Virus record (IMG/VR): IMGVR_UViG_3300024346_000025
Coordinates: 7,197 to 71,196 of that record
Direction: 5' to 3' (one strand)
DNA: 64,000 nucleotides
Source of the DNA: a virus
Lineage: Duplodnaviria > Heunggongvirae > Uroviricota > Caudoviricetes
The notes beneath the pieces are model-generated. The model did no database searches and had not been told where the DNA came from. It saw only the letters and a list, made by a program, of their open reading frames with translations. Shown piece by piece: positions 1-41,900 of this stretch. A program made the position numbers and the translations under genes. Within the stretch, counting starts at the first letter, position 1, and each line of letters starts with the position of its first letter.

Positions 1-8
1 AAGGGCGC

Positions 9-179
9 ATGTACAATCCAGTAACATATAAGATTGCAACTATGAAGGCAGACGGCACTTGTACAGGTTGTGGCCGCATCTTAGAGAAACACGTCGACTA
101 TCTTGGAAAGGATGGCGGCTACGAGGGCAAACCATGGAGGCTTTGCGAGCCTTGTGTGTTAGCCATCCAAAGCATTTAG
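9..179 (+). CDS. hypothetical small zinc-ribbon protein (may be 5'-truncated by the window edge)
   Basis: Frame-3 ORF MYNPVTYKIATMKADGTCTGCG...CEPCVLAIQSI ending at TAG 177-179. Two CxxC pairs (CTGCG, CEPC). Reverse ORF 40..279 judged spurious. Confidence 0.35.
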   Translation: MYNPVTYKIATMKADGTCTGCGRILEKHVDYLGKDGGYEGKPWRLCEPCVLAIQSI

Positions 180-191
180 AGGTAATGAAAG

Positions 192-752
192 ATGAATGAC
201 ATGAGAAAGTTAATGGAGACTCTAGGTAAGATTGAAGAGGGTTACGAGACCAAACGCAAAACCCCAAATCAAATTGCAAAGAGCATTTTGAACCAATACA
301 AGTTCAACAACACAATGGCCTTTTCAGACGCAGTTAGTGGCGGGCGCAGATACAAACTAATCGGCATTCGTAAAAAAGACGCTGCCCCCAGCTATTACAG
401 CAACGGAGCGTACACTATTGGCCCTGTACCAACAGCAGCCGAACAGAAAAAGATCGGCGCAAAAATTAAAGCTGCCATTGAGGCTGCTGGTTGGGATGTT
501 GAAAGTTTTTCGTTTATAGAAAAGGAAATCATTACCCGAGTTCGTACCCCAGTAACAGAGGGAATGGAGACCATCGAACAGCTTAACGAAGTTAGTGATT
601 TCGATAGTGAGGCGTTAGATGAGTTAGTTAGGCGTTTTGCAGAGATGTGTGCGTCTTTCGGTATTTCAACCAACTCAACGAAGGCTAGGGATTTAATGAA
701 TGTAGTTCTTGCCCGCGCTGAAGATGTCGAACCTATTAAGAGGCTGGTGTAG
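192..752 (+). CDS. MNDMRKLME-family protein (186 aa), function unknown
   Basis: ATG ORF; N-terminus MNDMRKLMETLGKIEEG shared with six other ORFs; purine-rich stretch GGTAATGAAAG upstream of the start. Confidence 0.65.
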   Translation: MNDMRKLMETLGKIEEGYETKRKTPNQIAKSILNQYKFNNTMAFSDAVSGGRRYKLIGIRKKDAAPSYYSNGAYTIGPVPTAAEQKKIGAKIKAAIEAAGWDVESFSFIEKEIITRVRTPVTEGMETIEQLNEVSDFDSEALDELVRRFAEMCASFGISTNSTKARDLMNVVLARAEDVEPIKRLV

Positions 753-919
753 TGAAATGGAAGAAGGCCGCTGATTATTCAACCCTTCGCGAGGACTTTG
801 AGGTTTTTTATGCGGGGTTTGATTACGGATTCAATTCTAGCGCAAGTGGAGGCGCAGGCGAAGTATCTGAAGCTGAAGAAGCCTACCGCAAATGGAAAAA
901 GACTGGCGACTTAGGTTAA
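752..919 (+). CDS. possible small ORF (55 aa) with GTG start filling the gap between two family members
   Basis: GTG at 752 overlaps the preceding stop; open to TAA at 917-919; no in-frame ATG; exactly fills the intergenic gap. Weak. Confidence 0.2.
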   Translation: MKWKKAADYSTLREDFEVFYAGFDYGFNSSASGGAGEVSEAEEAYRKWKKTGDLG

Positions 920-928
920 GGAGAATTT

Positions 929-1267
929 ATGAATGACATGAGAAAGTTGATGGAGGCGATTGCACAAATTGAAGAACAACGTGATCCTAAAGAATGGGCA
1001 CAAATAATTTTAGATAAGTTTGTAGAGGACGAGTTCACTGTAAACTATATTAGACAAGAGGGCTTTGAAGAATGTCTTAGTTTAGCGTTTGGCGGCGAAC
1101 TTGGAGACGAGGGATATAGCGGCGAACCGACAGGATATTATGCGTTGGAGGAATCGGACCAAAAGAAAATCGAAAGATGGGTTAAAAGCCAGCTTCGTAA
1201 AGGGGCGAAGATTGATCCTGATGTTGCTGATTCGAGAGGACACATTGGCGGATCAAGACGAGGATAA
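929..1267 (+). CDS. MNDMRKLME-family protein (112 aa)
   Basis: Starts ATGAATGACATGAGAAAGTTGATGGAG; RBS GGAGAA 6 nt upstream; acidic protein. Confidence 0.65.
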   Translation: MNDMRKLMEAIAQIEEQRDPKEWAQIILDKFVEDEFTVNYIRQEGFEECLSLAFGGELGDEGYSGEPTGYYALEESDQKKIERWVKSQLRKGAKIDPDVADSRGHIGGSRRG

Positions 1268-1270
1268 GTT

Positions 1271-1591
1271 ATGAATGACATGAGAAAGTTAATTGAAGCT
1301 ATCGAATCCAACGAGCAAGAGTTAGATGAAGCTGTTGGCCAGGTTGTATATGTTGTTGCGCGCAATTATGATTATGAAGGCAGCGAGGTTCTCGGCGCGT
1401 TTATTTCTATGGAAGATGCAGTCGCAGCAATTAATGTATTGGATAGCCATCACGGATCTGGAGATTATTTAGGACTAGGTCATTTTGGTGCTGGAGATAG
1501 TTATACTGTTCATACGCTTTCGGTTGGTGATCAAAATGAAGATCACCCAGAAACACACTTCGATAAAAAATCAGATTTAGGATTAGGATAA
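1271..1591 (+). CDS. MNDMRKLIE-family protein (106 aa)
   Basis: Same conserved 5' coding segment; shares its 5' leader GGATAAGTTATGAAT with the next gene. Confidence 0.65.
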   Translation: MNDMRKLIEAIESNEQELDEAVGQVVYVVARNYDYEGSEVLGAFISMEDAVAAINVLDSHHGSGDYLGLGHFGAGDSYTVHTLSVGDQNEDHPETHFDKKSDLGLG

Positions 1592-1594
1592 GTT

Positions 1595-2035
1595 ATGAAT
1601 TCAGCAGCAAGAAAAACAATACTGATGATGACCAACACTGGTCTCAATCATAACCTCACTGGTGATGCTATTCGCGCCGACAGTTATTACGGCATGACGG
1701 ATGGTATTCACACTGTGCAGGTTGTGTATAGCAATTTCACTGGAAGCTTTGGTATCCAAGGAACGCTTGCTACTGATCCAACTGAGACTGATTGGTTTGA
1801 TATCAACTTGAATACAAGGGCTAATACTAGCGCAATGGATCCTATGATCTCATTCCCTGTTAACGTGTTATCTCCAACAGGCGATACTGGTGACACTGGT
1901 ACGCAAGCATTTACGTTTGTTGGCAACTTCGTATACCTACGCGCAATACTAGACCGTAGCTATATCCCAGAGCCAAGCAACCTAGATACAAGAACAGCAC
2001 TTGGTCACATAGATCGTGTGCTATTGAGTTTATAA
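1595..2035 (+). CDS. hypothetical protein (146 aa)
   Basis: ORF immediately after the previous stop; same leader GGATAAGTTATGAAT but not the MNDMRKLME N-terminus. Confidence 0.5.
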   Translation: MNSAARKTILMMTNTGLNHNLTGDAIRADSYYGMTDGIHTVQVVYSNFTGSFGIQGTLATDPTETDWFDINLNTRANTSAMDPMISFPVNVLSPTGDTGDTGTQAFTFVGNFVYLRAILDRSYIPEPSNLDTRTALGHIDRVLLSL

Positions 2036-2046
2036 GGAAAATAAAA

Positions 2047-2337
2047 ATGAACGACATGAGAAAGTTGATGGAAGAGATTGCAGCACTCAGTGAAGAAACA
2101 ACGGAAGAAGGCATTACAGGCAGACCAGCAACAAATATTGTTCGTAAGGCGCTTGGTAAGGTTCCATATGTTGAGGGCGCCGATGCGGTAGTCCACTTAA
2201 CTGTCGATCAGCTTATTATGAAAATGGAATTAGGTATGAAGGCTCGTAATAGCAATGACCCAGAGTTCCTACAAAAGCTTATGGGTGATGCCCGCAAGGA
2301 ATTAATAGACTTGCAGAAATGGTTGCGTAAAAAATAA
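2047..2337 (+). CDS. MNDMRKLME-family protein (96 aa); short paralogue of the downstream gene
   Basis: The N-terminal 20 aa and the C-terminal ~75 aa (…NSNDPEFLQKLMGDARKELIDLQKWLRKK) match 2371..2961 at protein and DNA level. Confidence 0.6.
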   Translation: MNDMRKLMEEIAALSEETTEEGITGRPATNIVRKALGKVPYVEGADAVVHLTVDQLIMKMELGMKARNSNDPEFLQKLMGDARKELIDLQKWLRKK

Positions 2338-2370
2338 GAGTGACCCACTAGATCTGAAGGAAAAATAAAA

Positions 2371-2961
2371 ATGAACGACATGAGAAAATTGATGGAGACC
2401 ATCGAACGGATTAACGAAATCGGCGCGGGAGGATTAGCTGGACTAGAAATGCGCGCCGATGAGATTAAGGCTGCACAAGGCGTTGTTGGAGATATTATTA
2501 ATCTATTAAACCAAACAGATGATAATGAAGAAGTAGTAGGAGCCTTACAGCAATTTGCAAAATTTCCTGGGGCTCCTGAGAATTTTATAGATTTATTAAG
2601 AGACGCTATGCGTGTTTATGTTCGTGCTTTTAAAGATGATCCTTATGTAAAAAGATTAAGTATCATACGTAATATGTTACAACACGGTGTTGTTCCAATG
2701 GAAGAAGGCATTATAGGTAGGGCAGCAACAGACATTGGTCGTAAACTAGTTAATAAGGTACCGTATGCTGAAGGCATAGAGCATATGGTCAGAATATCCG
2801 TTGAAAGTGTTATTATGAGATTGGAAATAGGTCTACAGTCCCGCAACAGTAATGATCCGGAATTCCTACAAAAGCTTATGGGTGATGCCCGCAAAGAATT
2901 AATCGAGTTGCAAAAATGGATGCGTAAACATAAGAGTGATCCACTAGGTCTGAAGGACTAA
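2371..2961 (+). CDS. MNDMRKLME-family protein (196 aa); long paralogue
   Basis: Conserved 5' segment; contains an internally repeated segment (…VPYVEG/…VPYAEG) and a C-terminus shared with 2047..2337. Confidence 0.65.
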   Translation: MNDMRKLMETIERINEIGAGGLAGLEMRADEIKAAQGVVGDIINLLNQTDDNEEVVGALQQFAKFPGAPENFIDLLRDAMRVYVRAFKDDPYVKRLSIIRNMLQHGVVPMEEGIIGRAATDIGRKLVNKVPYAEGIEHMVRISVESVIMRLEIGLQSRNSNDPEFLQKLMGDARKELIELQKWMRKHKSDPLGLKD

Positions 2962-2966
2962 ATAAC

Positions 2967-4211
2967 ATGGCACGAATTAGAGCAGGTAATACATTAGCGA
3001 ATCAATACGCACCACCGTTTGTGGTGTCTGATAGTGTGTCTACAAACTGGCACCTACGCTGGAGTGATAATCTAAAAGCATTTGAAGCGTATGATCCAGA
3101 TGAAAATGCTAACATCAACGCTGGATTCGATAGTATTGAGGTTTATGGTCCATTAGTTGGTACTGGTGGTCAAAGCTTTATTCTTCCGTGGGCAGTGGCT
3201 ACAAAACAATCGCTAATTATTACTATAAACGGTGTTAAGCAAGATCAAGCTGCTTATAGTTTAGGAACTGTCACTGATTCGACCACACAGGTTATTATGG
3301 CTTCGGCTGTCAATTCTCCGGACGAAATTGAATTTGTTGGTTTACAAGCAAGCAACCCAACTGACATTAAAGTATATACGGCTGTAGGTGACAACTCACA
3401 GATGACATGGACATTGCCTTGGGTAACCCCTAGTGCTGCCGCCCTAATTGTAACACTTGATGGTGTTAAACAAAGTGTAAACTCTTATATCATAACACCA
3501 GTAGGATTAGCGACTGACATAACCTTCACAGGAACCCCGGGTCTTGGTGTTGCTATTGAAGTTGTGGGTATTATTGATACAGGCGAAACACCAGCAAGCC
3601 CAGTTAACATGATTAACCTGTATACGGGACCTGGCAGCGCAAGTGTGTACAAAGAAAAAGTAACATCGGGTGCAACGCAAATATTTAACATGCGAAGTCT
3701 TTCTGAAGGGACAGGAGTCACACTAACTGAAGGACCAACAAGCATTACAATAAGTGCTGCTTCTAAGACATTTTCTAACTTAGGTTCTGGTCGTACATTG
3801 ATGGTCGATCCCAATGCTGATCCTATAGAATTTTATGCCGTAACTGGTTCAGGTCGAATTGAAATTTCTAATCCTGCATTAACAGGCGACACTCTTACTT
3901 TTTCATATAACCACGGATACAAGCAAGACGGAGCAGCAACAGTTAATGCTAGTCCCACTGACCGCGTCGTCGGTGTAACAAACGCCGGTTCCGCTGTTAC
4001 TGTTAACTTAGCAGCCATTGGTAACATGACTGCTGGTGACTCGATCACAGTAAAGGATGAGGCGGGGGATGCTAACACGTTTAACATCACAATTGAAACT
4101 GCAGGAGCCGAAACTATAGACGGTGCTGCTAATTATACGATAAACACTGCATATGGATACGTCACACTTTACAGCGATGGTGCAAACTACTTTGTAATTG
4201 CTGCGGGATAA
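2967..4211 (+). CDS. tail-fibre-like or receptor-binding structural protein (414 aa)
   Basis: Thr/Gly/Ser-rich; internal duplicated ~60-aa domain (…FILPWAVATKQSLIITINGVKQ… / …WTLPWVTPSAAALIVTLDGVKQ…). Antisense ORFs inside it rejected. Confidence 0.5.
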   Translation: MARIRAGNTLANQYAPPFVVSDSVSTNWHLRWSDNLKAFEAYDPDENANINAGFDSIEVYGPLVGTGGQSFILPWAVATKQSLIITINGVKQDQAAYSLGTVTDSTTQVIMASAVNSPDEIEFVGLQASNPTDIKVYTAVGDNSQMTWTLPWVTPSAAALIVTLDGVKQSVNSYIITPVGLATDITFTGTPGLGVAIEVVGIIDTGETPASPVNMINLYTGPGSASVYKEKVTSGATQIFNMRSLSEGTGVTLTEGPTSITISAASKTFSNLGSGRTLMVDPNADPIEFYAVTGSGRIEISNPALTGDTLTFSYNHGYKQDGAATVNASPTDRVVGVTNAGSAVTVNLAAIGNMTAGDSITVKDEAGDANTFNITIETAGAETIDGAANYTINTAYGYVTLYSDGANYFVIAAG

Positions 4212-4220
4212 TAACTCTCA

Positions 4221-5372
4221 ATGGCCCTAACTAGAATACGCACTGACAACATCCTAGACCGCGAGGTTAAGACGCAAGACCTTGCAGATGCTGCTGTTAC
4301 GTTTGATAAGATAGCTGGAGCCTCTGGTGGGTTAGCTGGAGATGTTTTAAAAACTGATGGTGCCGGTAATTTGTTTTGGCAACCAGCAACAGGTTCAAGC
4401 ACAGCACTAACCTCACTAACTGATGTAGATGTTGTAAGTAGACCACCAATAAATGGTGACTCGCTTGTATACAATACGCTCACATTAAAATGGGAACCAG
4501 GTAGCCGAGTTCCTAGCAGTCTCGGTCTCAATAGTCTCATTGACGTCTCATTTGCATATCCTCTTGTCCAAGATCAATTCTTACGTTACTCTGGCACGGG
4601 CTGGGTTAACAGTAAAGTATCAGCAGCCTATGTGCAAGGGCTTGCAGCCGTAGGTCTTACAGGGCTACTAAACTCTCTCACTGATGTTAACGTCACTGGA
4701 GCTACTGTCGGTCAACGATTAGGATTCGATGGTGTACAATGGCGCGCGTATGATGCCGCAGAATTTGGTAGTATAGATCAACTTACTGATGTTGACACAA
4801 GCACCACAGCCCCGGTTGGCGGTGATGCCCTTGTATGGAATGGTACAACGAATCAATGGGAGCCACTCTCAGTTGGTCTTGGTGCCAGCAGCAATACATA
4901 CGTGGTTGCAGACATAACAGCCCGCAATGCGTTGAGTGCAGCAAGCGGTGATCAATGTTTTGTTCGCACAGGTACTAGCGGTGAATGGGAATTATACCTA
5001 TGGGATTCAGCTTGGGTACTCATTGCTACTAACGATTCGGCACAGAGTGATGCAAACACAATTGAAGCAGTGGTTTACTTCAACACTGGTTCGCCTGTCC
5101 TGCTTGGTAACATTAGTGCTAACTCTCGCGTCACACTAGTCAGTATAGAGGTTATAACGATATTTGACGGTACACCAACACTTACGATTGGTGATGCTGG
5201 TGATAATGCACGATTAATTGATGATAATTTACACGACCTAACAGTTGTTGGTACTTATAATGCTACGACAGATTATGTTTATTCCAGCGCGGTTGACACA
5301 GACATATACGCATATTTCGCCTTCCCAGGCGCTACGCAGGGTGAAGCAAGGGTGCTCGTGACATACGTCTAA
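4221..5372 (+). CDS. tail-fibre-like protein (383 aa)
   Basis: Repeated L[TN]SL[TI]DV[DN]V motifs (at least three); Thr/Gly-rich beta-rich composition typical of fibres. Confidence 0.5.
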   Translation: MALTRIRTDNILDREVKTQDLADAAVTFDKIAGASGGLAGDVLKTDGAGNLFWQPATGSSTALTSLTDVDVVSRPPINGDSLVYNTLTLKWEPGSRVPSSLGLNSLIDVSFAYPLVQDQFLRYSGTGWVNSKVSAAYVQGLAAVGLTGLLNSLTDVNVTGATVGQRLGFDGVQWRAYDAAEFGSIDQLTDVDTSTTAPVGGDALVWNGTTNQWEPLSVGLGASSNTYVVADITARNALSAASGDQCFVRTGTSGEWELYLWDSAWVLIATNDSAQSDANTIEAVVYFNTGSPVLLGNISANSRVTLVSIEVITIFDGTPTLTIGDAGDNARLIDDNLHDLTVVGTYNATTDYVYSSAVDTDIYAYFAFPGATQGEARVLVTYV

Positions 5373-5388
5373 GAAAAACGCAGTGTTA

Positions 5389-5401
5389 AGATAAATATAA
5401 G
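5389..5401 (+). promoter_or_regulatory. late-promoter-like motif AGATAAATATAAG
   Basis: ATAAATA core about 35 nt upstream of the ATG of the 690-aa fibre gene; resembles the T4 late TATAAATA box. Confidence 0.3.
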
Positions 5402-5426
5402 AAGAAGAAGCATTGAGGACACATGA

Positions 5427-7499
5427 ATGACAACTAAAAATTATGGTTTAGCGGGTATCGGCGCCGACGTACAGCTTGGCAAAGCTGGCGGACGTTTAGT
5501 ATATAATACAGGCGCATCCGATTTCCGTTTTACAACGGATGGATCAACCCTTGCACATCTGCAAATATTAGATCCAGTAGCAGCAACTGATGCAGCGACA
5601 AAGCAATACGTAGACGATAGGTCTGCTGGTTTAGATCCTAAGGAATCGGTTAGAGCAGCAACGACCGGCGTTCTTTCTGGTGCAGCTTACTCTGCTGGTA
5701 GCGGAGCAGGTGGTACAGGTCAGTTTACATCTGCACCTGCAGCAATAGATGGTGTAACACTAGCACAGGGTAATCGGGTACTTGTTAAAAATCAATCGAC
5801 ACAGACTCAAAATGGTATCTATGTTGTTACGGCAACAACCACGACGTGGGATAGAGCATCAGATTTTGATGCCAACAACGAAGTAACTGCTGGTGCGTTT
5901 ACGTTCGTTGAGGAAGGTACAGCGAACCAAAACAGCGGCTGGGTACTACAAGGTCCCGACCCACTAACGCTTAATTCATCTAATCTAGTTTTTGCACTTT
6001 TCAGCACATCAACAGACTTGATTGCTGGTAATGGTCTTGTAAAGAATGGCAACGCACTTGACTTAGACTTTAGCGAATTAACAACTGCGACTACTATTGC
6101 AACTGCAGACACGCTTATTTTCCAAGATGGTGGAACTACAGAATCACAAATCACGGTTGCTAACTTCTTAGCTGACAGAGATATTGTTACTGCTACAGCG
6201 GACGGAATACTTACCCGCACTGCGAACGACACGTATGCTTCCCGCACCCTTACAGCATCAGCTGTGGCTGGTGACGAGGGCATTAGTATAGTAAATGGTG
6301 ACGGCGTTGCAGGCAATCCAACAATTGGTATTGACATTGTTGGTCAGACAAATCTAACGACAGACGATGTTGATGATGCTGATGAAATATTATTGTATCA
6401 CTCAGTAGCAGGCGGAACAGAAGGTGTAGGTAACTATGCAGTCACAGCATCCAAGTTAAAGACATACATGAATGCCGGTACTTCTGCCACTAGTATTACA
6501 GAGCTTAACACAACCTTAGCAGTAAGTGATAGTGGCACAAACGGTACGTTGACATTTACAGCAGACGGCACGGTTGTACTTACTGTAACTGACACGGTTG
6601 CTACATTCCAAAATGGTTTAGATATTACCATGAACACTGGCAGCACGTTAACTGTTACTGACTTGGCTGCTGGTCGTGTTGTATACACATCAACTGGCGG
6701 GCTATTAGTTACTGATGCAAGCTATACGTATAACGGCACAACGTGGTCATTGACAGCGGCTGCTAATATTACTGGTGATTTAGACGTTGACAACATTAAT
6801 ATTAATGGCAACGCAGTCACAGTTACAAACACAAACGGTAACCTAGACCTAAGTGCAAATGGCACAGGTGATACAAGGATACTAGATGGTGCGGGCGCAG
6901 AGATTGTAGAATTTTTAAACGGTTCTACAGCGGTCAATGGGTTGGCATTCCAGGCAGGTGCAACTGGTGTTGCTCCTTACATTACAACAGGTACTGGTGC
7001 TGAAGCTAATATAGATATCGGCTTCTTGATGAATGGCACAGGCGTGTTATCGGTCACAGCAGGTTCAGGCAACTACGAAGATAACGTTACGGCCGACGAT
7101 GACATTCCGAATAAGCTATATGTTGATAATGCAGTAGCAGCGGGCGTCGGTTTAACTGGTAACGTTGATACTATTACTGAAACAATCTCCCTGGCCGTTC
7201 CGGGTACACTCACAATAGGTGCAGCGACAGGTATTCCAGCTAACTGCACGATTCTAAGTACACTAGTAGATATTACAGTAGCAACAGATACAGCGGTTAC
7301 ATTAACGGTCGGTGATACAACAAACGGTGCTGCGAGTTATATGGCAGCAACAGAAAATGATCCAGAGATAATAGGCACTTACATTGCTGATGGGCGTTTG
7401 CTTAACGGTGGCACTGCTAGACAAGCTAATGCTACAGTTGGTGGTGTAGATGGTACAACTGGTACCGCAACTATAATTATTACGTTTAGACACGCATAA
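5427..7499 (+). CDS. tail fibre protein (690 aa)
   Basis: N-terminus GLAGIGADVQLGKAGGRL…FRFT…LQILDPVAATDAATKQYVDD looks typical of phage fibre N-termini; long Thr/Gly/Asn-rich beta-region; followed by a terminator. Confidence 0.6.
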   Translation: MTTKNYGLAGIGADVQLGKAGGRLVYNTGASDFRFTTDGSTLAHLQILDPVAATDAATKQYVDDRSAGLDPKESVRAATTGVLSGAAYSAGSGAGGTGQFTSAPAAIDGVTLAQGNRVLVKNQSTQTQNGIYVVTATTTTWDRASDFDANNEVTAGAFTFVEEGTANQNSGWVLQGPDPLTLNSSNLVFALFSTSTDLIAGNGLVKNGNALDLDFSELTTATTIATADTLIFQDGGTTESQITVANFLADRDIVTATADGILTRTANDTYASRTLTASAVAGDEGISIVNGDGVAGNPTIGIDIVGQTNLTTDDVDDADEILLYHSVAGGTEGVGNYAVTASKLKTYMNAGTSATSITELNTTLAVSDSGTNGTLTFTADGTVVLTVTDTVATFQNGLDITMNTGSTLTVTDLAAGRVVYTSTGGLLVTDASYTYNGTTWSLTAAANITGDLDVDNININGNAVTVTNTNGNLDLSANGTGDTRILDGAGAEIVEFLNGSTAVNGLAFQAGATGVAPYITTGTGAEANIDIGFLMNGTGVLSVTAGSGNYEDNVTADDDIPNKLYVDNAVAAGVGLTGNVDTITETISLAVPGTLTIGAATGIPANCTILSTLVDITVATDTAVTLTVGDTTNGAASYMAATENDPEIIGTYIADGRLLNGGTARQANATVGGVDGTTGTATIIITFRHA

Positions 7500-7545
7500 T
7501 AGAATTTCTTAGGACCGACACATCTTTGATGTGCTAAGAGGTAGA

Positions 7546-7578
7546 GAGCCCCGATTCTCCCGACGGGGCTTTCTTTTT
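7546..7578 (+). terminator. rho-independent terminator
   Basis: Stem AGCCCCG (7547-7553) / CGGGGCT (7564-7570), 10-nt loop, then TTTCTTTTT. Confidence 0.6.
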
Positions 7579-7597
7579 GTCTTTATTTCCTGAGACA

Positions 7598-7607
7598 TTG
7601 ATAAATA
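7598..7607 (+). promoter_or_regulatory. late-promoter-like motif TTGATAAATA
   Basis: TGATAAATA about 30 nt upstream of the ATG at 7639. Confidence 0.3.
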
Positions 7608-7638
7608 CAAATAGCAAGGACAACTGAGGAGAAGTAGC

Positions 7639-8028
7639 ATGGCATGTGAGAAGTGCGGTGCAGAGAACGGACAGGTAGACGAATCCTATCACGTTCACAA
7701 ACACCTAGAAGCCAAGTATAAGAAGTACTGGAGACCGATAGCCGCCTATGTTTATTTGACTATCTGTTTGTTTGATTTTATGGGTATGCCTATTTATACA
7801 GCATACAATAATAGCAATATAGACACAGCAGCACTAGCAGAGATACGGTTGTTTGAGGATCCAGAAGTTAGGAAGGTAGCATTAGCGCAATTGAATTTAG
7901 GTAAGAAAGAATGGCATCCAATTACATTAGAAGGCGGGGCCTTGTTTCATCTCAGCTTTGGTGCTATAATAGGTATATCTGCGTTTAGTCGCGGACAAGA
8001 AAAGAAAGCTGCTATACAGCGAGGATAA
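7639..8028 (+). CDS. membrane protein with N-terminal CxxC (129 aa); possible holin-like protein
   Basis: Two hydrophobic segments (IAAYVYLTICLFDFMGMPIY; GALFHLSFGAIIGISAF); RBS GAGGAG 8 nt upstream. Confidence 0.45.
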   Translation: MACEKCGAENGQVDESYHVHKHLEAKYKKYWRPIAAYVYLTICLFDFMGMPIYTAYNNSNIDTAALAEIRLFEDPEVRKVALAQLNLGKKEWHPITLEGGALFHLSFGAIIGISAFSRGQEKKAAIQRG

Positions 8029-8032
8029 TAGA

Positions 8033-8461
8033 ATGAATGATATGAGAAAATTGATGGAAACCGCATCAGCACTTGACTACGATAGCGATGTTATCGATAA
8101 AATAAACTCTCGTGACCGTCTTTGGGCAGTTGAGACTCGTGATCGCTATGAGGATAGATGGGAAGGGATTAAATCAGGGCTTCATTCTGAAGAAGAAGCC
8201 CAAGCAGTATTGAAATATCACCTAAAGAAATGGTTTGATAATGTTGACAAACACATTGAGGATTATTATTCCATAACTGGCGGTGCTACGGGGAACGATG
8301 CGAGTATCACAAGAAAACTTTCGAATCCAAATTACTACCAATGTTGGATATATGACCCGGGTGCTGTCTGGTGGCGTGGGTTTCAGCAGGGCGAAGATCT
8401 CGCCCCTAATTTACGTAAAGTTTTAGATAGGGAATATCGAATCACAAATAACGACATTTAA
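8033..8461 (+). CDS. MNDMRKLME-family protein (142 aa)
   Basis: Starts ATGAATGATATGAGAAAATTGATGGAA. Confidence 0.6.
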   Translation: MNDMRKLMETASALDYDSDVIDKINSRDRLWAVETRDRYEDRWEGIKSGLHSEEEAQAVLKYHLKKWFDNVDKHIEDYYSITGGATGNDASITRKLSNPNYYQCWIYDPGAVWWRGFQQGEDLAPNLRKVLDREYRITNNDI

Positions 8462-8472
8462 GGATTAGAGCA

Positions 8473-8790
8473 ATGAATGATATGAGAAAACTAGTGGAGT
8501 CTTTAGAGGCTATTGAAGAAGGCATAAACGCAAGACCAGATGAGATTGCTGAGGAGCTTGGTCATATTAAAGATCAGATAAAGGATCTCCTAGAAGAAGC
8601 CCGCTATATAGTAGAGCATGTTGGTGGTCAAATTGAAGCGAGAGCAACATCTTATTGGCTTCCGCACATTGCAATGGCATTGGATAGTGATCATGGTTAT
8701 TTGGGTGGTAGCATGGCTACTATGCAAAGCACGATTGATGAAATCCTCGAACAAGAAGATGATGAAGATTATCACAAAGACGACATCTAA
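8473..8790 (+). CDS. MNDMRKLVE-family protein (105 aa), acidic C-terminus
   Basis: Starts ATGAATGATATGAGAAAACTAGTGGAG; ends in an acidic tail (EQEDDEDYHKDDI). Confidence 0.6.
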   Translation: MNDMRKLVESLEAIEEGINARPDEIAEELGHIKDQIKDLLEEARYIVEHVGGQIEARATSYWLPHIAMALDSDHGYLGGSMATMQSTIDEILEQEDDEDYHKDDI

Positions 8791-8792
8791 TA

Positions 8793-9368
8793 ATGCGTTT
8801 ATTTGAGTTAGCAAACAACCAACCTAAGCACAGGACCGCCGTGTTTACGTTTGGTCGCTGCAATCCGCCAACGATTGGACATGAGAAGCTTGTGCAGACA
8901 GTACAGAATGTTGCACAGGCTAATGACGCTGATTCATTTATTTTTCTCTCACAAACACAGAAGAAGCCAAAGGATCCTTTGTCTTGGCAAGACAAGCTAA
9001 AAATATTTAAGATGATGTTCCCATCTGCAAACGTTTGGGAAGACCCTGCCATAAAGACACCCTTCCAAGCATTAGGTGAACTAGCTGAAGATTATAAGAA
9101 TATTATTCTTGTTGTGGGTGATGACCGAGCAGAGCAGTTTGCTTTGGGCATGGGCAAGTATGCAAAAGAGTGGGACGTGGAGAATTTCTCTGTTGTCTCG
9201 GCTGGTGGTCGCGACCCTAACGCTGAAGGTGTTGAAGGTATGTCAGCATCCAAAGCAAGGTCATACGTTGCAGCTGGAGACTTCCCTAACTTCGCTTCAT
9301 CTTTACCCAATACAATTTCCACAAAACAAAAGAAAGCTATCTTTCAACTCCTAACTAAATCTATGTAA
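8793..9368 (+). CDS. nucleotidyltransferase (HxGH / cytidylyltransferase-like fold); possibly NMN adenylyltransferase-like
   Basis: N-terminal FTFGRCNPPTIGHEKL resembles the G-R-F-x-P-x-H-x-G-H motif of archaeal-type NMNAT and related nucleotidyltransferases. Confidence 0.5.
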   Translation: MRLFELANNQPKHRTAVFTFGRCNPPTIGHEKLVQTVQNVAQANDADSFIFLSQTQKKPKDPLSWQDKLKIFKMMFPSANVWEDPAIKTPFQALGELAEDYKNIILVVGDDRAEQFALGMGKYAKEWDVENFSVVSAGGRDPNAEGVEGMSASKARSYVAAGDFPNFASSLPNTISTKQKKAIFQLLTKSM

Positions 9369-9372
9369 TGTC

Positions 9373-9401
9373 TTGACAAATCCTCATAAGTATAGTACAA
9401 T
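9373..9401 (+). promoter_or_regulatory. sigma70-type promoter TTGACA-17-TACAAT
   Basis: TTGACA 9373-9378; TACAAT 9396-9401; followed by AGGAGG (9411-9416) and the ATG at 9422. Confidence 0.55.
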
Positions 9402-9421
9402 AGTGTACTTAGGAGGTAACA

Positions 9422-9706
9422 ATGACAACAACTACACCAGCAACACCCCAAGCCCACATCCGGCATTACTCTCAGGATGACGTTAATCGTCTAAAACAAC
9501 TAGTGACAGACGGTTGCACTATCATGCAAGAGACTAAGGACTTGAATGACGGCTTGAGTGATACGATCAAGGCAATTGCAGAAGAGATGCAAATTTCACC
9601 TTCCGTACTAAAGAAGGTAATTAGGGTTGCCTTCAAGCGTAGTCGCGATGAAGAGCGCACGAAGTTTGAAGAACTAGAAGATATCCTAGACACGCTTGGT
9701 CTATAA
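9422..9706 (+). CDS. hypothetical protein (94 aa)
   Basis: Strong promoter and RBS upstream. Confidence 0.55.
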   Translation: MTTTTPATPQAHIRHYSQDDVNRLKQLVTDGCTIMQETKDLNDGLSDTIKAIAEEMQISPSVLKKVIRVAFKRSRDEERTKFEELEDILDTLGL

Positions 9707-9708
9707 AG

Positions 9709-9993
9709 ATGACTCACTTTATCCGAGACGTCTGGTCATTCTGGAAGGAAACTTGGCGCCTCGATAAAGTATTATTCTTTGCAGAGGCTATAGGCACATT
9801 CTGCGGCATGACTGCGGCAGCAACGATGGGACTGCAAACGCCCAACCCTGACCTACCAGTCATCTATGCATTTTATCTTGCAAGTGGCATGCTTTTAGCG
9901 TATACTAGTTATATACGTCGAGCATCTTGGATGGTAGTCCTCATGTCGTTTTATGTGCTGACAACAATTATTGGAATAGGAAAACTCTTTTAA
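9709..9993 (+). CDS. small membrane protein (94 aa)
   Basis: Hydrophobic segments AIGTFCGMTAAATMGL… and MVVLMSFYVLTTIIGIG; its stop TAA overlaps the polymerase ATG (TAATG). Confidence 0.45.
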   Translation: MTHFIRDVWSFWKETWRLDKVLFFAEAIGTFCGMTAAATMGLQTPNPDLPVIYAFYLASGMLLAYTSYIRRASWMVVLMSFYVLTTIIGIGKLF

Positions 9994-12962
9994 TGTATGT
10001 AGACGCGCTATTTTCAAAAAAGCAATCACAAGTAAAAGTGGTAGAACGTGTAGATGGTAAACGCATCTACAAAGACTATCCCGCCATATACGAATTCTAT
10101 GCAGAAGATCCTAAGGGTCGTTTCAAAGGTTTGCATGGCGAATCCCTAACTAAATTTTCATGCGGTTCTGATGCGGACTTCCGAAAGACAAAGCGCATGA
10201 ACAGCAACAAAAACCTTTTTGAGTCAGATGTAAAGCCCGTTAACAAGGTGTTAGAGAAGTATTATCAGCACACAAACCCTGCTGAGATGCACGTGGCCTT
10301 CTTCGATATTGAGACAGACTTCGACCGAGAGACAGGCTATAGCTCGCCTGAGGATGCCAGTAACGCTATCTTATCCGTGGCTGTTCATCTACAGTGGCTT
10401 GGTCAAACAGTTTGCTTGGCTGTGCCTCCCAAGGGTATGGACATGGAAGAGGCAAAGAAGATTGCTGACCGTGTTGGTAACACCATCATGTATTATGAGG
10501 AAGCCCATATGCTAGATGCGTTCCTCACACTAATTGAAGACGCTGATGTGTTGAGTGGTTGGTATAGTGAAGGATTTGATATCCCATACACCGTCAATCG
10601 CATTACGCGGATACTTGGTAAGGCTGAGACACGCAGGATGTGCTTGTGGAATGAACTGCCTGAGATGCGCATGGTGGCGCGCGGCGGTAAAGAATCACCC
10701 ACGTATGACTTGGTCGGTCGTGTTCACCTTGACTACTTGCAGCTATACAAAAAGTTTATTTACGAGCAGCGTCCAAGCTGGTCACTAGACGCAATTGCGG
10801 AACACGAACTGGGCGACTGTAAGGTGCCTTATGACGGTACACTAGACGCACTGTATAACAAGGACTTTGAGAAGTTCCTACGATACAACATACAAGATAC
10901 AGAACTGCTAGACAAGCTAGACAAAAAGTTGCAGTATATTGATTTGGCATGTAGCATTGCACACGGTAATTCGGTTGTCATCAAGGCAGCGATGGGCGCG
11001 GTAGCAGTTACAGAACAAGCGATTATTATAGAAGCGCATAACAGGAATGTAATGGTGCCAGATCGTGTGCGTGTTGGTGAAGATGATTTGCCAGCTGCGG
11101 GCGGATGGGTCCAGACCCCGAAAAAGGGATTGCACCGCTGGGTCGGTTCATCTGACTTGAACTCACTATACCCCTCAGTGTTACGCGCACTGAACATGAG
11201 TCCCGAGACCATTGTTGGTCAGGTTCGGCATGATGGCACTGACAAAGCTATACGAGATTTTATTGAGGCTGCGAAACGTAATTCATTTACGGAGTGGTGG
11301 AATGACCGCTTTAATACGTTGGAGATGGAACACTTCTTCAACAACGATAACGTGGAGCGTCTCACGCTAGACATGGCAGACGGGTCGTCGTGTGAGGTCA
11401 CTGGTGCTGAATTGCGCAAGCTAGTTTTTGAAAGTGGCAACCCATGGTGTATCTCAGCGAACGGTACGATCTTCCGCACAGACGTGGACGGCGTGATTCC
11501 TGGCTTGTTAGGTCGCTGGTATGCAGAGCGTAAAAAGCTACAAGCGATCAAGCGTGACTATGATGCGCTACAGGAAGGCGTACACGTTGACATACGCGCT
11601 GACGTTGCAAGCGACATTACGGAAAACTTAGAGCGCAAGCGTGAAGCTGGTGAGGTGTCGATTGTTAATGCGTTGGATCAGAATCAGGTGTTCAGTGTTG
11701 CGGCATTGAAGAAAAAGGCTGAGAGTAAGAATCCCGAAGACCTATATGCGTATATGCTCTCACACAACCTTGTGTTTGACAAGCAGGGTTTGGTTCACTA
11801 TGCAGATAAAGCGCAACTGAAAAAGATCATTGGCTTCTGGGATAAGAGGCAGTTGGTCAAAAAGATTAGCTTGAACTCATTGTATGGTGGGTTGTTGAAT
11901 GAGCATTGTAGGTTTTACGATCACAGGTTAGGTCAAAGCACAACGCTAACTGGTCGTACAATTGCACGACACATGTCTGCTAAGACGAATGAGATCATTG
12001 ATAATGTTTACGATCATACAGGGCGGTCTGTTTTGTACGGTGATACTGACTCAGTTTATTTTTCGGCGTATCCTATATTGAAGGATGAAATTGAAGCTGG
12101 CGAAATTGTTTGGAATAAAGAGAGTGTGGTTGAGCTTTACGATGTAATTGGTGAGCAGGTATCAGATTCATTCCCGCAGTTCCTCAGTGAGGCACTTAAC
12201 GTCCCGCAGAACAGAGGCAACGTTATGAAGTCGGGTCGGGAAATTGTAGCTGAGACTGCACTGTTTGTTACAAAGAAACGCTATGCTGCATTGGTATATG
12301 ATGAAGAAGGTAACAGACGAGACGTAGACGGCAAGGATGGTAAGCTAAAGATTACTGGACTTGATCTGCGCAGGTCAGACACACCTGTCATTGTGCAAAC
12401 ATTTTTGACTGAGGTGCTGAAAGATGTGCTTGCGCTTGTTGACGAAGAGACAATTATTGAGAAAGTGCGCAAGTTCAAACAGCAGTTTAGTGAGCTTCAT
12501 CCTTGGGAACAGGGGTCGCCGACGGCAGTAAATAATCTTACACGCTACACAGATGCGCTGGAGAAGTCCTTAGAGAACAAGTTTACGGAATTCAAAAAGC
12601 TATCTAAAACTGTAGCTAACACAGAGAAATTGTCGATTCCAGGTCATGTTATGGCAAGCATAAATTGGAATAGGCTGCGGGCTGTGCATAACGACTTGCA
12701 CACCGTAAAGATAGTTGACGGACATAAGGTGAACGTGTGTTGGTTGAAAGATGGCAACGACATGAGAATGTCATCTGTTGCGTATCCTGTAGAGGAACCT
12801 CATCTTCCTGACTGGTTCATCAATTTACCTTTTGACACAGACAGCATGATGCGGTCTAACGTAGATAAAAAGGTAGAAAATCTTCTTGGTGTGTTGGGTT
12901 GGGATTTGTCTAGAACAACACCCTCAGCCGCACACATGGAAACTTTGTTTGACTTTTCCTAG
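9993..12962 (+). CDS. family-B DNA polymerase (about 990 aa)
   Basis: Exo I FFDIETDFD near nt 10300; YGDTDS motif near nt 12040; KxxxNSxYG-like LNSLYG. Start placed at the ATG at 9993 (TAATG overlap), not the upstream ATG at 9927. Confidence 0.9.
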   Translation: MYVDALFSKKQSQVKVVERVDGKRIYKDYPAIYEFYAEDPKGRFKGLHGESLTKFSCGSDADFRKTKRMNSNKNLFESDVKPVNKVLEKYYQHTNPAEMHVAFFDIETDFDRETGYSSPEDASNAILSVAVHLQWLGQTVCLAVPPKGMDMEEAKKIADRVGNTIMYYEEAHMLDAFLTLIEDADVLSGWYSEGFDIPYTVNRITRILGKAETRRMCLWNELPEMRMVARGGKESPTYDLVGRVHLDYLQLYKKFIYEQRPSWSLDAIAEHELGDCKVPYDGTLDALYNKDFEKFLRYNIQDTELLDKLDKKLQYIDLACSIAHGNSVVIKAAMGAVAVTEQAIIIEAHNRNVMVPDRVRVGEDDLPAAGGWVQTPKKGLHRWVGSSDLNSLYPSVLRALNMSPETIVGQVRHDGTDKAIRDFIEAAKRNSFTEWWNDRFNTLEMEHFFNNDNVERLTLDMADGSSCEVTGAELRKLVFESGNPWCISANGTIFRTDVDGVIPGLLGRWYAERKKLQAIKRDYDALQEGVHVDIRADVASDITENLERKREAGEVSIVNALDQNQVFSVAALKKKAESKNPEDLYAYMLSHNLVFDKQGLVHYADKAQLKKIIGFWDKRQLVKKISLNSLYGGLLNEHCRFYDHRLGQSTTLTGRTIARHMSAKTNEIIDNVYDHTGRSVLYGDTDSVYFSAYPILKDEIEAGEIVWNKESVVELYDVIGEQVSDSFPQFLSEALNVPQNRGNVMKSGREIVAETALFVTKKRYAALVYDEEGNRRDVDGKDGKLKITGLDLRRSDTPVIVQTFLTEVLKDVLALVDEETIIEKVRKFKQQFSELHPWEQGSPTAVNNLTRYTDALEKSLENKFTEFKKLSKTVANTEKLSIPGHVMASINWNRLRAVHNDLHTVKIVDGHKVNVCWLKDGNDMRMSSVAYPVEEPHLPDWFINLPFDTDSMMRSNVDKKVENLLGVLGWDLSRTTPSAAHMETLFDFS

Positions 12963-38979: not shown

Positions 38980-41900
38980 TTATAGTGCGTTACCTGCTTC
39001 TGCATTTATGAATACTGCTTGCGCCGTTGTAGAAGCATTTAATCCACCAGCATTTTGTTGATCTACTGACCATGTTAGCGTATTGGCGCCGGTTATGCGA
39101 CCCGCTGTATTGTAAATTGGGGCTGAAGGTAGTTCTAAAGCTTCAGTATCAAATATACCTGTTGCTGTCGCTGTTCCGTCTCCTGAACCTGTTAAGTCAA
39201 AATTCACCGTGCCAGTTTCTGCTGATCCTGATCCGCGAGATATTATACTAATCGCTGTAATTGCGCCGCTGCCATCGACCGCAGCTACCTCAGCCAGCGG
39301 ATGATAGAACTCAAATTCTGATCCAGAACCTGAGGCTGTAGTAATTGAATCCACTGTAGTGAATGTGTATCCACTACCTCGGTTGCTGAATGTTAGCGAT
39401 GTTATTCCGCCTAGACCATTTATAGTACCAACAGTAGCAGCTCCACTACTACCATCTCCGCCAAAGTTAATGGTATCTCCGACCAAATAATTTATACCAC
39501 CGTTAGTAATTACAGGATCTGGGATTTGAGTTGGGATTGGCGCCGCATCACCCACGCTATACCCTGCAGCACCATCTGTAATAGTAATTATACTCAGCTC
39601 ACCAACAGGTATGATTGTCGTGCTATATTCGCGAGCAATTGCACCACCACTTGTAACATTGAGTGTATCACCATTAGCCATATTAGCAGTAAATAAATTA
39701 TCTGTCCCGTCACTAAAAATTATAGTACCATCAAAGTTATCTTGCCATATACCGTCTGTTCCACTATAAATGCTTGCGCTTGTTGTATCAACCCAGTATA
39801 CTTCTGGGAGTGCAATTTCCTGTGAGGCTCCACCTGCAAACATTTTGACGCCCGAATCATGTGCGCTTAGTGTTGTACCAAGCGTACCTCTGCGGACACC
39901 TAGTAGCAAATTATTTACTTCATCAGCACCATATGCCTCAATGCGTTCGTTGCCGATCCATGCTATTAGCGGTGTTGTTAGTGTTGGGGCAGTTGCTGAC
40001 TCGTATAACAACGTCACGTCTGTTACTGCAATTATATCGTCTGTTAGACCAATTGCTGCTATAGTGGTTGTGCTTGCGCTATCAGCGTTACGTATGTAAT
40101 GCGAGTTATGCACTGTATCGTAATGTATGCGGAAGCTTGTTGATCCATTGGCCATATTCATTGTTGCTACATTAGCTAGTGTACCAGCTGTTGTTATGGT
40201 TGTTATTTGTTCGTTTACACTGGTTCCGCCCATAGTCTCAACAACATAAATAAAACGGTAAGTAGATCCGTCGTCATAAGTATGATCTACTGTGTATGTT
40301 CCGTCTTTTGTTGCATCAAAGCTATTCACAACGGTTATAGAATCACCCGGAGAGAGTGTTAGTACATCCGCACAATTAAGTACGCTATATGGGATTCTTA
40401 TTCCCCATAACGGAGCATCTGCTAGATCATTACGGATGGCTATTGGCCCACCTATGCTAACGTTAGTGATGTTTAAACCCGTAACAGCATCGGTTTGTAT
40501 GGTTACAGGATTTGCTGGATACACAGAATATGTTCCAGGCTCAGTAATATCGAATGTATCTATTGCACCTGTTGAAATATTTACGCCTGTTACAGTTATC
40601 TGTAATGGAGTAGTAAATGTTCCGCCTTGCGCGGTTAGTACGTCATCAATTGCAAAGCTAGTACCACCATCTACGATCGCATAGGGAATATCTGTTGTAT
40701 CAGCAACTAGCACAAACGATTCTCTTGGATCAAGCGGAACCATTTCATCTGTTATGCCTTCATTGACTTGCGGGTTGATTAGATCACCAGCTTCAATATA
40801 TGTAAACAACTGGATGTTATTTGTGCCAACACCCGGTGCCGTAATAAATACAAGCTTGCCTGCAATGAAGAAGTAGTCCACGTTCAAACGCATTTCGACA
40901 CCGTCAACCACAGCAAACATAAAGTAGGTTGGCGTTGTGGTAACGATTGCAAATTCTCGTGTCGTGCCGTCTCCGTCAAATTCTTCTTCTGCAGGAATAT
41001 CAGCAAATAGGTTCAGACCATCAGCAGCATCACCTAAACCGTCAAGCAATGTAATGCTATTGTCATTGTCGTTGGAGTCCCAACCGATCTGATCCCAAGG
41101 GAGGCTATCCCATGGTTGTGTATCACCCGCTTTGAATACAAGCGATGTAACACTTCCGTCAGTGCCCGACCCTCCCAACAATAGCACAGGATCAATGGTT
41201 GGTTTTTGCACGTATGCACCGCCGCTTAATAGTTTCAATCCTGTTATCTCTCCGCTACCACCAATAGATAGAACACGGAACGCAGCGGGTGCCTTTGGAA
41301 TACCACTACCAGCGTCTAGATATAATGTATCACCAACAACATAACCCGTACCAGCCGCAGAAATGTCTGCGCTAATCAACGATGGGAAGCTACCAAATAG
41401 CGTGTTTTGTAGTGTAATACCAGTAAAGTCTGCTGCAAATTCTTGGATGATTCTCTCATTCAATGCTGCTACTGCTTCGATCTCAGTCTGCGTAGGCGCC
41501 ATGCCCACAGCAGTTACAGAATAACTACTTAGTAGGTCAGGGTCTAAACCTGTTGCAAGGTCAGTAATGTCTGCCAACAAATCTCTTTGTTGTGCAGCGT
41601 AACGTCCAGCAGCACCTAAGCGCACCAGTGTCGCACCAGCGTCTAATGTACTGTAACCATCATACGTTGCAGATCCCATACCTAACGCTTTTACAATACG
41701 TGCCTCAGCAATACTAAAATCGCCGCCGCGCACTCTATCGTAATACAATGTCATACTCATATTACGTAGGATTTCCTCGGCTGAACCTGGCAGCACATCT
41801 GTGTCTGCTGCACGTACAATGGTGTAGTCGCGTAGCTTGGAGTGGTATGGCTTCGCCTCCGTAATATAATCTACGGCGCTGTCAAACGGATCATTTTGAT

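Follow-up and report, generated by a model that had tools for sequence, protein, structure and literature searches.

Here we describe a short N-terminal leader, hereafter called the tag, which opens a set of small phage proteins encoded in a 64,000 bp stretch (the window) of the IMG/VR record IMGVR_UViG_3300024346_000025 (Caudoviricetes; positions 7,197–71,196). All seven open reading frames (ORFs) starting at positions 192, 929, 1271, 2047, 2371, 8033 and 8473 (+ strand) begin with MNDMRKL[M/I/V]E. A degenerate DNA pattern for the leader gave exactly seven matches in the window against 0.00 expected from 100 shuffles, and a six-frame scan of the window revealed no eighth copy in any frame. 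We favor, with moderate confidence and by analogy, the reading that the leader acts like the capsid-targeting sequence of phage T4, loading the proteins behind it (the cargos) into the phage head and being clipped off by a T4-type protease.

The seven starts had been noticed in an initial annotation made from the letters alone; the ORF starts and the shuffle test agree with it, and the observation is confirmed and is larger than first described. The shared peptide, reported there as an identical decapeptide, has an identical core of nine residues, and the count of seven genes rises to at least nine on the contig, with two of them lying to the left of the window. The window flanks were read from ENA ERZ27246548 k141_767084 (100 kb; L029 on the left side, L174 on the right). 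The eighth tagged gene (L029:9731–9988, 85 aa) reads MNDMRKLMEKVNKINEG... and runs into the window ORF 9–179 (+), which is its C-terminal part and contains a Zn-ribbon-like CxxC...CxxC motif; its start and tag are 78 nt left of the window. Going on leftward along this contig for about 8.8 kb, one reaches the ninth tagged gene (110 aa).

The structure of the leader was analyzed over 69 independent cargo clusters. The consensus comprises 16–17 residues, MNDMRKLME[AT][VI]Ex[IL][NDE]E, and can also be written as MNDMRKLME-x-[IV]-x-x-[IL]-x-E. Positions 1–9 are essentially invariant; position 10 is A, T or S, position 11 is V, I or L, position 14 is I or L, position 15 is E, D or N and position 16 is E, and positions 17–20 are enriched in the turn-forming residues G, P, S, N and D. 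M4 and L7 are each found in 67 of the 69 clusters, being replaced elsewhere by F or I and by F, respectively. The initial annotation held that the leader ends in [LI]-x-E. This is correct for residue 9 (67/69 clusters), and there is a second site at residues 14–16 (41/69), against a background of one or two, at most five, occurrences at any other position. The leader is thus predicted to be an amphipathic helix of 16 residues, with its hydrophobic face formed by positions 4, 7, 8, 11 and 14, and to be followed by a flexible turn-rich linker. In low-confidence single-sequence AlphaFold2 models of two of the proteins (g1271 and g8473, named by their start positions), residues 2–20 are helical. 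The model of g1271 (mean predicted local distance difference test score, pLDDT, 52) has a helix at 3–20, a break at 20–24 and strands from residue 25; in that of g8473 (mean pLDDT 65) the leader helix runs on into the next helix. Both models were too weak for fold searches, and only their secondary structure was used.

Codon usage was compared in 71 distinct tag DNAs from many contigs, and every synonymous family was found to be in use: Asn is encoded by AAC (40) and AAT (31), Glu by GAA (48) and GAG (23), Arg by AGA (44), CGA (10), CGC (10) and CGT (6), and Leu by TTA, CTA, TTG, CTC and CTG. Since the synonymous codons vary freely while the amino acids stay fixed, selection appears to act on the peptide. 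An alignment of the 80 nt upstream of the seven starts contained nothing conserved except a ribosome-binding-site-like AGGA, and the starts of tagged genes gave no Rfam match and no common or unusually stable RNA fold. The earlier proposal that the peptide and not an RNA element is conserved is therefore upheld.

The tag is widespread. Exact-pattern scans of IMG/VR revealed it at 27 loci, and those of JGI metagenomes at a further 57. The contigs occur, for example, in samples from the Columbia River estuary and in Baltic or Arctic ones. Together with a hidden Markov model (HMM) search, the pattern scans yielded 123 distinct tagged proteins (median 94 aa, range 48–565 aa), which were grouped by cargo into 70 clusters; no similarity could be detected from one cluster to another. 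For nearly all of the 136 tag occurrences in the IMG/VR and metagenome loci, an in-frame stop lies only a few codons upstream. An HMM of the seven N-termini, searched against 1.84 billion representative proteins, gave 42 significant matches, 41 of which begin at residue 1. Close variants of the leader include MNEMRKLME, MSDMRKLME, MNNMRKLME and MTSDMRKLME, and the amino-acid replacements are conservative (D/E, M/I/L/V). A word-indexed homology search with a 40-aa N-terminal profile matched three proteins, there being too few common 5-mers.

The strict tag pattern was absent from 596 Gb of bacterial and archaeal genomes. A looser pattern matched five times in cellular genomes, in all cases deep inside long ORFs, and these matches were rejected as chance. 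A translated search of 50,697 cultured-phage records with g2371, the 20-aa consensus tag and two large cargo families gave no match, nor did megablast of window positions 1–9000, and a literature search for the string MNDMRKL retrieved no paper that contains it.

Thus, tagged genes are known from uncultured phage and metagenome contigs, and wherever their neighbors are informative these are similar to genes of Pseudomonas phage PA5oct. The 1460-aa baseplate wedge protein of the window phage is 47.5% identical to its PA5oct counterpart (more distant relatives are found in Atu_ph07, Phosso and SCTP-2); its gene adjoins a 4005-aa ORF at 38980–50997 (-). The TerL protein of locus L001 shares 54% identity with that of PA5oct, locus L017 has the same DnaJ-ClpA-structural-gene synteny, and locus L021 is collinear with window positions 4221–12962. 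The window phage is an uncultured giant myovirus, and it shares the tag with many of its aquatic relatives. In 92 kb of PA5oct itself no equivalent family with a shared leader was found by a script that recovered T4 IPII/IPIII as a positive control; ordinary paralog pairs and common fiber N-termini were the only findings.

The cargos behind the tag are diverse. The initial annotation considered those of the window unrelated, which is true for all but g2047 (2047–2337, +; 96 aa; leader 2047–2097) and g2371 (2371–2961, +; 196 aa; leader 2371–2421): the two share a paralogous C-terminal domain of 76 aa with 66% identity. No match to g2371 was found among cultured phages in the translated search. 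Gene g929 (929–1267, +; 112 aa; isoelectric point, pI, 4.7; leader 929–979) matches neither Pfam nor PHROG. The product of g1271 (1271–1591, +; 106 aa; pI 4.3; leader 1271–1321) contains a DUF7336-like cargo, with residues 26–59 aligned to profile positions 3–36 at 22.2 bits (E 1.3e-4), i.e., under the curated 25-bit cut-off; its residues 25–96 also align with positions 1–71 of phrog_5421 (E 1.5e-4). Genes g8033 (8033–8461, +; 142 aa; pI 5.1; leader 8033–8083) and g8473 (8473–8790, +; 105 aa; pI 4.2; leader 8473–8523) complete the set, and homologs of the g8473 cargo, behind the same tag or a variant of it, were detected in loci L012 (MSDMRKLME...), L014 and L074.

When 72 representatives of the cargos were scanned against Pfam and PHROG, isolated matches were all that emerged; these were to uncharacterized families and to folds of the zinc-ribbon or SH3-like type. 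A possible anti-defense role, suggested in the initial annotation, thus received no support from the domain scans. A significant Pfam match was obtained for one cargo, to DUF7448 (E 4e-25), with the domain starting at residue 29. The leader can be regarded as an add-on, because leader and linker precede the domain, clearly so in the DUF7448 protein and, at the sub-threshold level, in the DUF7336-like one (from residue 26). The mature cargos are mostly acidic: their median pI is 4.65, 70% lie under pI 6 and 14% above pI 8.

It should be noted that, judging from the comparison of related loci, the tagged genes are gained and lost as cassettes in the intervals between conserved genes, much as happens at the internal-protein loci of T-even phages. 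In PA5oct, ClpA is directly followed by gp299, the homolog of the untagged gene at 1595–2035 (+) of the window (43.5% identity), which serves as a conserved anchor; its product also matches phrog_13657, a family of unknown function (E 7e-28), and PA5oct gp299 is annotated as 'structural protein, ESI-MS/MS'. In the window phage, seven extra genes, four of them tagged, are located between ClpA and the gp299 homolog. In L017 there are no genes between ClpA and the position of the gp299 homolog, and a tagged gene with an HNH-like ORF separates two structural genes that lie side by side in the window phage. This insertion (L017:4669–5523) consists of a tagged 61-aa gene and a 221-aa ORF ending in ...HHVVP, which we take, by its sequence, as a candidate HNH-type endonuclease; the joint insertion hints that homing endonucleases may help the cassettes to move. 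Similarly, L021 contains a single different tagged gene (67 aa) at the site of g8033 and g8473, and in L001 a tagged gene lies just upstream of TerL, where gp203 abuts TerL in PA5oct. Other contigs have tagged genes adjoining TerL, DnaB and ribonucleotide reductase (RNR). The check proposed earlier, whether relatives differ in cargo repertoire, thus gave a clear answer: the cargos change at fixed loci and the leader stays constant.

Several proteins contain more than one copy of the tag. The first tagged gene of the window, g192 (192–752, +; 186 aa; leader codons 1–17, 192–242), is a fusion of two cassettes: it has an internal tag remnant, METIEQLNEV, at residues 125–134, and its residues 125–185 are 56% identical to residues 8–68 of a stand-alone tagged 87-aa protein from L067 (E 4e-22). 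As the alignment starts from tag residue 8, the second cassette keeps the second half of the tag (residues 8–16). A 182-aa protein (L076:1943–2488, -) has a complete internal tag, NEMRKLMEAVEE, and protein P0154 has two internal copies. These in-frame fusions would be small polyproteins if the tag holds a cleavage site, and the retained internal tags would be tolerable because the tag would carry such a site. The largest tagged protein (565 aa; L003:1081–3944, -) is encoded immediately downstream of a gene for a 388-aa trypsin-like protease (phrog_20754; a weak match to Pfam Trypsin_2), and has a 410-aa relative, P0145.

The initial annotation called for a search of the genome for a prohead protease similar to T4 gp21, and such a protease is encoded on the contig. 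To the right of the window the genes follow the T4 order: Portal_T4, a 73-aa protein, an acidic 284-aa protein, Peptidase_S77, a 374-aa scaffold and a Gp23 capsid protein. Peptidase_S77 (the T4 gp21 family; 205 aa; L174:13007–13624) would fall at window coordinates 74255–74872, 10.3 kb right of the window. In the relative L092, whose portal protein is 75% identical to that of the window phage, the protease (207 aa; phrog_207) has 40% identity with T4 gp21 (E 2e-25), and 36% identity was found between the capsid protein and gp23. Head proteins of the window phage have N-termini of a related kind: the scaffold begins with MRKFEDILAE and the 73-aa protein with MDLRKFLLNE, which has D-phi-R-K-phi-phi in common with the tag; the capsid protein contains ...KEALME-G. 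Across the clade, scaffolds start with MLDVLKSLFEN, MLDAFKRLVES or MNEILANLLES. The head proteins thus appear to carry N-terminal helices with [LI]-x-E similar to the tag.

Two further observations can be mentioned. The gene of the 73-aa protein (L174:11750–11971, window about 72998–73219), situated between the portal and protease genes, occupies the position of the T4 prohead core proteins gp67 and gp68. Its family (about 65–100 aa; phrog_13986, function unknown) has at least 118 homologs (P0004–P0121), in which a conserved [LI]-[LI]-x-E-[NYH]-Y motif precedes a basic block, DTRRPRLTLRHLNKLRK, that is invariant. In addition, a second recurrent N-terminus, M-R-(L/A/I)-(N/F)-(E/D)-(L/F/I/M)..., was revealed (examples being MRLFELA, MRLNELLNE, MRANEFIVE and MRLNDILLE) at window 8793–9368, L029:1610–2065 and 2062–2715, L012:2429–2860 and 3095–5125, and L174:13637–14761. 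It is carried by one protein similar to cytidyltransferases, by another with an amidoligase domain and by several uncharacterized ones. It resembles the scaffold start MRKFEDILAE, those of many homologs of the 73-aa protein (MRFNELA, MRYSELKE) and T4 MKTYQEFIAE; the likeness could point to head-targeting leaders of a second class, or be a coincidence.

The system that is closest in its logic is that of the T4 internal proteins IPI, IPII and IPIII, whose capsid-targeting sequence was reportedly described by Mullaney and Black in 1996. IPII and IPIII start with MKTYQEFIAE, IPI with MKTFKEF...ITE and the T4 scaffold gp22 with MLKEQLIAE. Truncation and suppressor experiments assigned targeting to residues 4 and 7 of the T4 sequence and processing to residues 8 and 10, and an Asp in the last place of that sequence, where the cut is made, prevents processing (PMC9026906). 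T-even phages have diverse, hypervariable internal proteins that differ between related phages and have this sequence alone in common (PMC3012670). In both systems an N-terminal propeptide (10–19 aa) stands on otherwise unrelated small proteins (95–193 aa in T4), positions 4 and 7 are hydrophobic (M4 and L7 of the tag being near-invariant and E9 invariant), the propeptide ends in [LI/T]-x-E, and there is a gp21-family protease and a gp22-like scaffold with a leader-like N-terminus of its own. Just as the IPII/IPIII leader resembles the N-terminus of gp22, the tag resembles the N-termini of the head module. The differences are that the leader sequence is MNDMRKLME... and not MKTYQEFIAE, that it is longer (16–17 aa) with two phased [LI]-x-E sites, that the repertoire is larger (at least nine in this phage, 70 cargo clusters in the clade), that the cargos are mostly acidic whereas IPI, IPII and IPIII are basic (pI 8.9–9.5), and that the carrier is not a T-even phage but belongs to a PA5oct-like lineage of giant phages known from metagenomes alone. 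No cargo matched a PHROG or Pfam internal-protein family.

Other systems are less similar. Giant phages of the phiKZ/SPN3US type have ejection or inner-body proteins with N-terminal propeptides that are removed by the gp175/gp245 prohead protease (PMC5694885). They too are giant myoviruses with many different head proteins, their propeptides were inferred to target the prohead, and the SPN3US-type paralogs gp53 and gp54 have identical N-termini with the rest diverged; however, most of these propeptides exceed 100 residues, and their cleavage logo is a different one (PMC5694885). In addition, this type lacks a short universal tag on unrelated cargos and belongs to another lineage, one with a virion RNA polymerase. 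A terminal amphipathic helix also serves as a transferable address label for a protein shell in the cargo-loading peptides of encapsulins, whose shells have the HK97 fold of phage capsids, and in the encapsulation peptides of bacterial microcompartments. Such peptides differ from the tag in that they are usually C-terminal (in encapsulins), are not known to be removed by a maturation protease and have no known sequence similarity to it.

On the capsid-targeting reading, the leader would dock diverse small cargos onto the scaffolding core of an assembling prohead of a T4-type giant myovirus, and the gp21-family prohead protease would cut it at L7-x-E9 and/or [IL]14-x-E16. The mature cargos would stay inside the head until the DNA is injected and would pass into the host along with it, and new cargos could be recruited by placing the leader before any small gene. 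Docking followed by clipping is the most economical reading, because leader-like head N-termini and a gp21-family protease are encoded on the contig. Of the five features of T4-type capsid targeting, four were found (a common leader, hydrophobic positions 4 and 7, [LI]-x-E, and a protease with a scaffold), and the fifth, basic cargos, was not. Thus, the analogy with T4 internal proteins drawn in the initial annotation is borne out circumstantially for leader, motif and machinery; it fails for cargo charge and sequence homology, and membership in this class is proposed by analogy and unproven.

Several points weigh against this reading. The acidity of most cargos has already been mentioned. The neighborhoods of head genes in 80 related contigs, about 1 Mb in all, contained no tagged gene, and only two scaffold N-termini there resemble the tag. 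The tag is not similar to the T4 targeting sequence and is only loosely similar to the scaffold N-terminus of its own phage; N2, D3, R5 and K6 are conserved beyond the need of a generic amphipathic docking helix. The [LI]-x-E motif is short, and glutamate-rich helices can be expected to yield it easily. A phage ClpA and DnaJ are encoded 1–4 kb upstream of the tagged genes. The cultured-phage searches revealed no phage with the tag or with a cargo homolog. A motif that reads MNDMRKLIEAASFAAQRH at the start of a 179-aa HD-domain protein (L046:3797–4333; similar to guanosine tetraphosphate (ppGpp) hydrolases) overlaps the domain (HD_4 from residue 10), which means that removal as a leader is impossible for this copy; chance probably accounts for the match, unless it is an exceptional case of a tag fused directly onto an enzyme. 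Finally, we infer docking, cleavage, packaging, injection and the effector role alike from the likeness to T4.

The same observations have to be weighed under other explanations. The leader may be a permanent part of the mature proteins, acting in coiled-coil oligomerization or as an anchor to one conserved host or phage hub with no packaging and no cleavage; purifying selection would preserve it while the remainder of each protein diverges or is exchanged. We regard this as unlikely. The heptad-like hydrophobic spacing (4, 7, 11, 14) and the strong conservation of N2, D3, R5 and K6 would fit a specific interface, the helix in the low-confidence model of g8473 continues into the next one, the L046 motif overlaps its HD domain, and tagged genes are scattered among replication and packaging genes. 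However, a permanent helix leaves the [LI]-x-E enrichment at exactly two positions unexplained, and a mere interaction helix does not need the residue-1 position seen in 41 of the 42 HMM matches. The leader is also dispensable for the fold (clearly in the DUF7448 protein, sub-threshold in the DUF7336-like one) and is followed by a turn-rich linker. Very improbable, in our estimate, is conservation at the level of nucleic acid, with the leader DNA being a translation-initiation enhancer or a recombination site for cassettes and the peptide incidental. The cassette behavior of the tagged genes would agree with it, as would their A-rich, weakly structured starts and the use of AGA for Arg-5 (e.g., window 204–206) in 62% of the 71 tag DNAs, compared with 16% genome-wide as counted in long window genes; this excess may result from the A-rich unstructured starts themselves or from common ancestry. 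Against it, all synonymous families are used (Arg CGN/AGR, Leu CTN/TTR) under fixed or conservatively varied amino acids, the upstream DNA is not conserved, and the Rfam and fold scans were negative. By these data an RNA-level explanation is effectively excluded.

It is also conceivable that the phage ClpA (probably with ClpP) and DnaJ recognize the leader as a degron or as a docking signal on a set of small, probably early effectors, which the phage could then unfold, pass on or degrade jointly at a given time of infection. We consider this doubtful, and assign an equally low probability to the broader variant of a phage-specific address or timing label that is read by ClpA/ClpP-DnaJ or by another phage-built structure. 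A role in degradation or chaperone docking is possible because ClpA and DnaJ are encoded beside the tagged cluster. The contig left of the window contains genes for a spanin, DnaJ, a 759-aa ClpA homolog and a nucleoside deoxyribosyltransferase; DnaJ and ClpA together span L029:5805–8894 (window about -4000 to -900), with ClpA at L029:6615–8894 (Clp_N, two AAA modules, ClpB_D2-small) and DnaJ adjacent, both on the strand of the first tagged genes. The synteny of DnaJ, ClpA and a structural gene is repeated in L017 and in PA5oct, the latter also having ClpP. A phage-borne Clp system is unusual. ClpA and ClpX read N-terminal signals, as in P1 RepA and lambda O, which have a hydrophobic and basic core like the tag, and phi-R-K-L-phi, a hydrophobic core flanked by basic residues, is a site of the Hsp70/Clp-adaptor type. 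To our knowledge, the known Clp signals are loose motifs on single substrates and not a near-invariant 9-mer on dozens of proteins. The cargos, being small, acidic and devoid of homologs, resemble early-gene products. On the other hand, the two phased [LI]-x-E motifs and the invariant Glu-9 are left without a reason, no adaptor was identified, and on other contigs the neighbors of tagged genes are TerL, DnaB and RNR, with ClpA genes nowhere near. PA5oct has ClpA and ClpP but no tag in 92 kb, and the translated cultured-phage searches gave no match, which could be counted against a Clp label; the absence of the tag from the PA5oct regions examined speaks, in our opinion, neither for nor against it. 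Tag and ClpA occur together in L017, and most tag loci are too short for co-occurrence to be judged. As a separate observation, gp272, gp297 and gp298 of PA5oct make up its ClpP and its DnaJ/ClpA pair, and mass spectrometry detected this ClpP in virions.

If the leader is a capsid-targeting sequence, a sequence label picks out, from metagenomes alone, the proteins injected by a large group of uncultured aquatic giant phages, and the tagged genes form a catalog of candidate first-strike effectors with at least 70 cargo families, almost all without a known domain. The internal proteins of T4 include inhibitors of host restriction. Capsid targeting would also mean that the T4 strategy, in which interchangeable cargos bear a short clip-off tag, is used by phages far removed from the T-even group, though with another tag; the loading of foreign proteins into phage heads would thereby gain a second natural tag. 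If the leader instead serves the phage Clp as a degron or docking tag, it would represent a new kind of viral post-translational control, in which one transferable 16-residue tag would regulate a whole fast-changing set of small effectors.

As to the surroundings of the tagged genes, three fiber- or baseplate-associated structural genes at 2967–7499 (+; 414, 383 and 690 aa; PHROG tail, baseplate and fiber families) split them into two groups and are syntenic with genes for large virion proteins downstream of PA5oct gp299. Scans of positions 1–10000 for sigma-70-like promoters and terminators gave counts at or below shuffle expectation, and the T4 late promoter TATAAATA was not enriched. The sole near-consensus sigma-70-type promoter in the first 10 kb is located at 9373–9401 (+; TTGACA, 17-nt spacer, TACAAT; 11/12), after the block of tagged and fiber genes and before the DsbA-like and DNA polymerase genes; its position suggests that it marks the boundary of a transcription unit.

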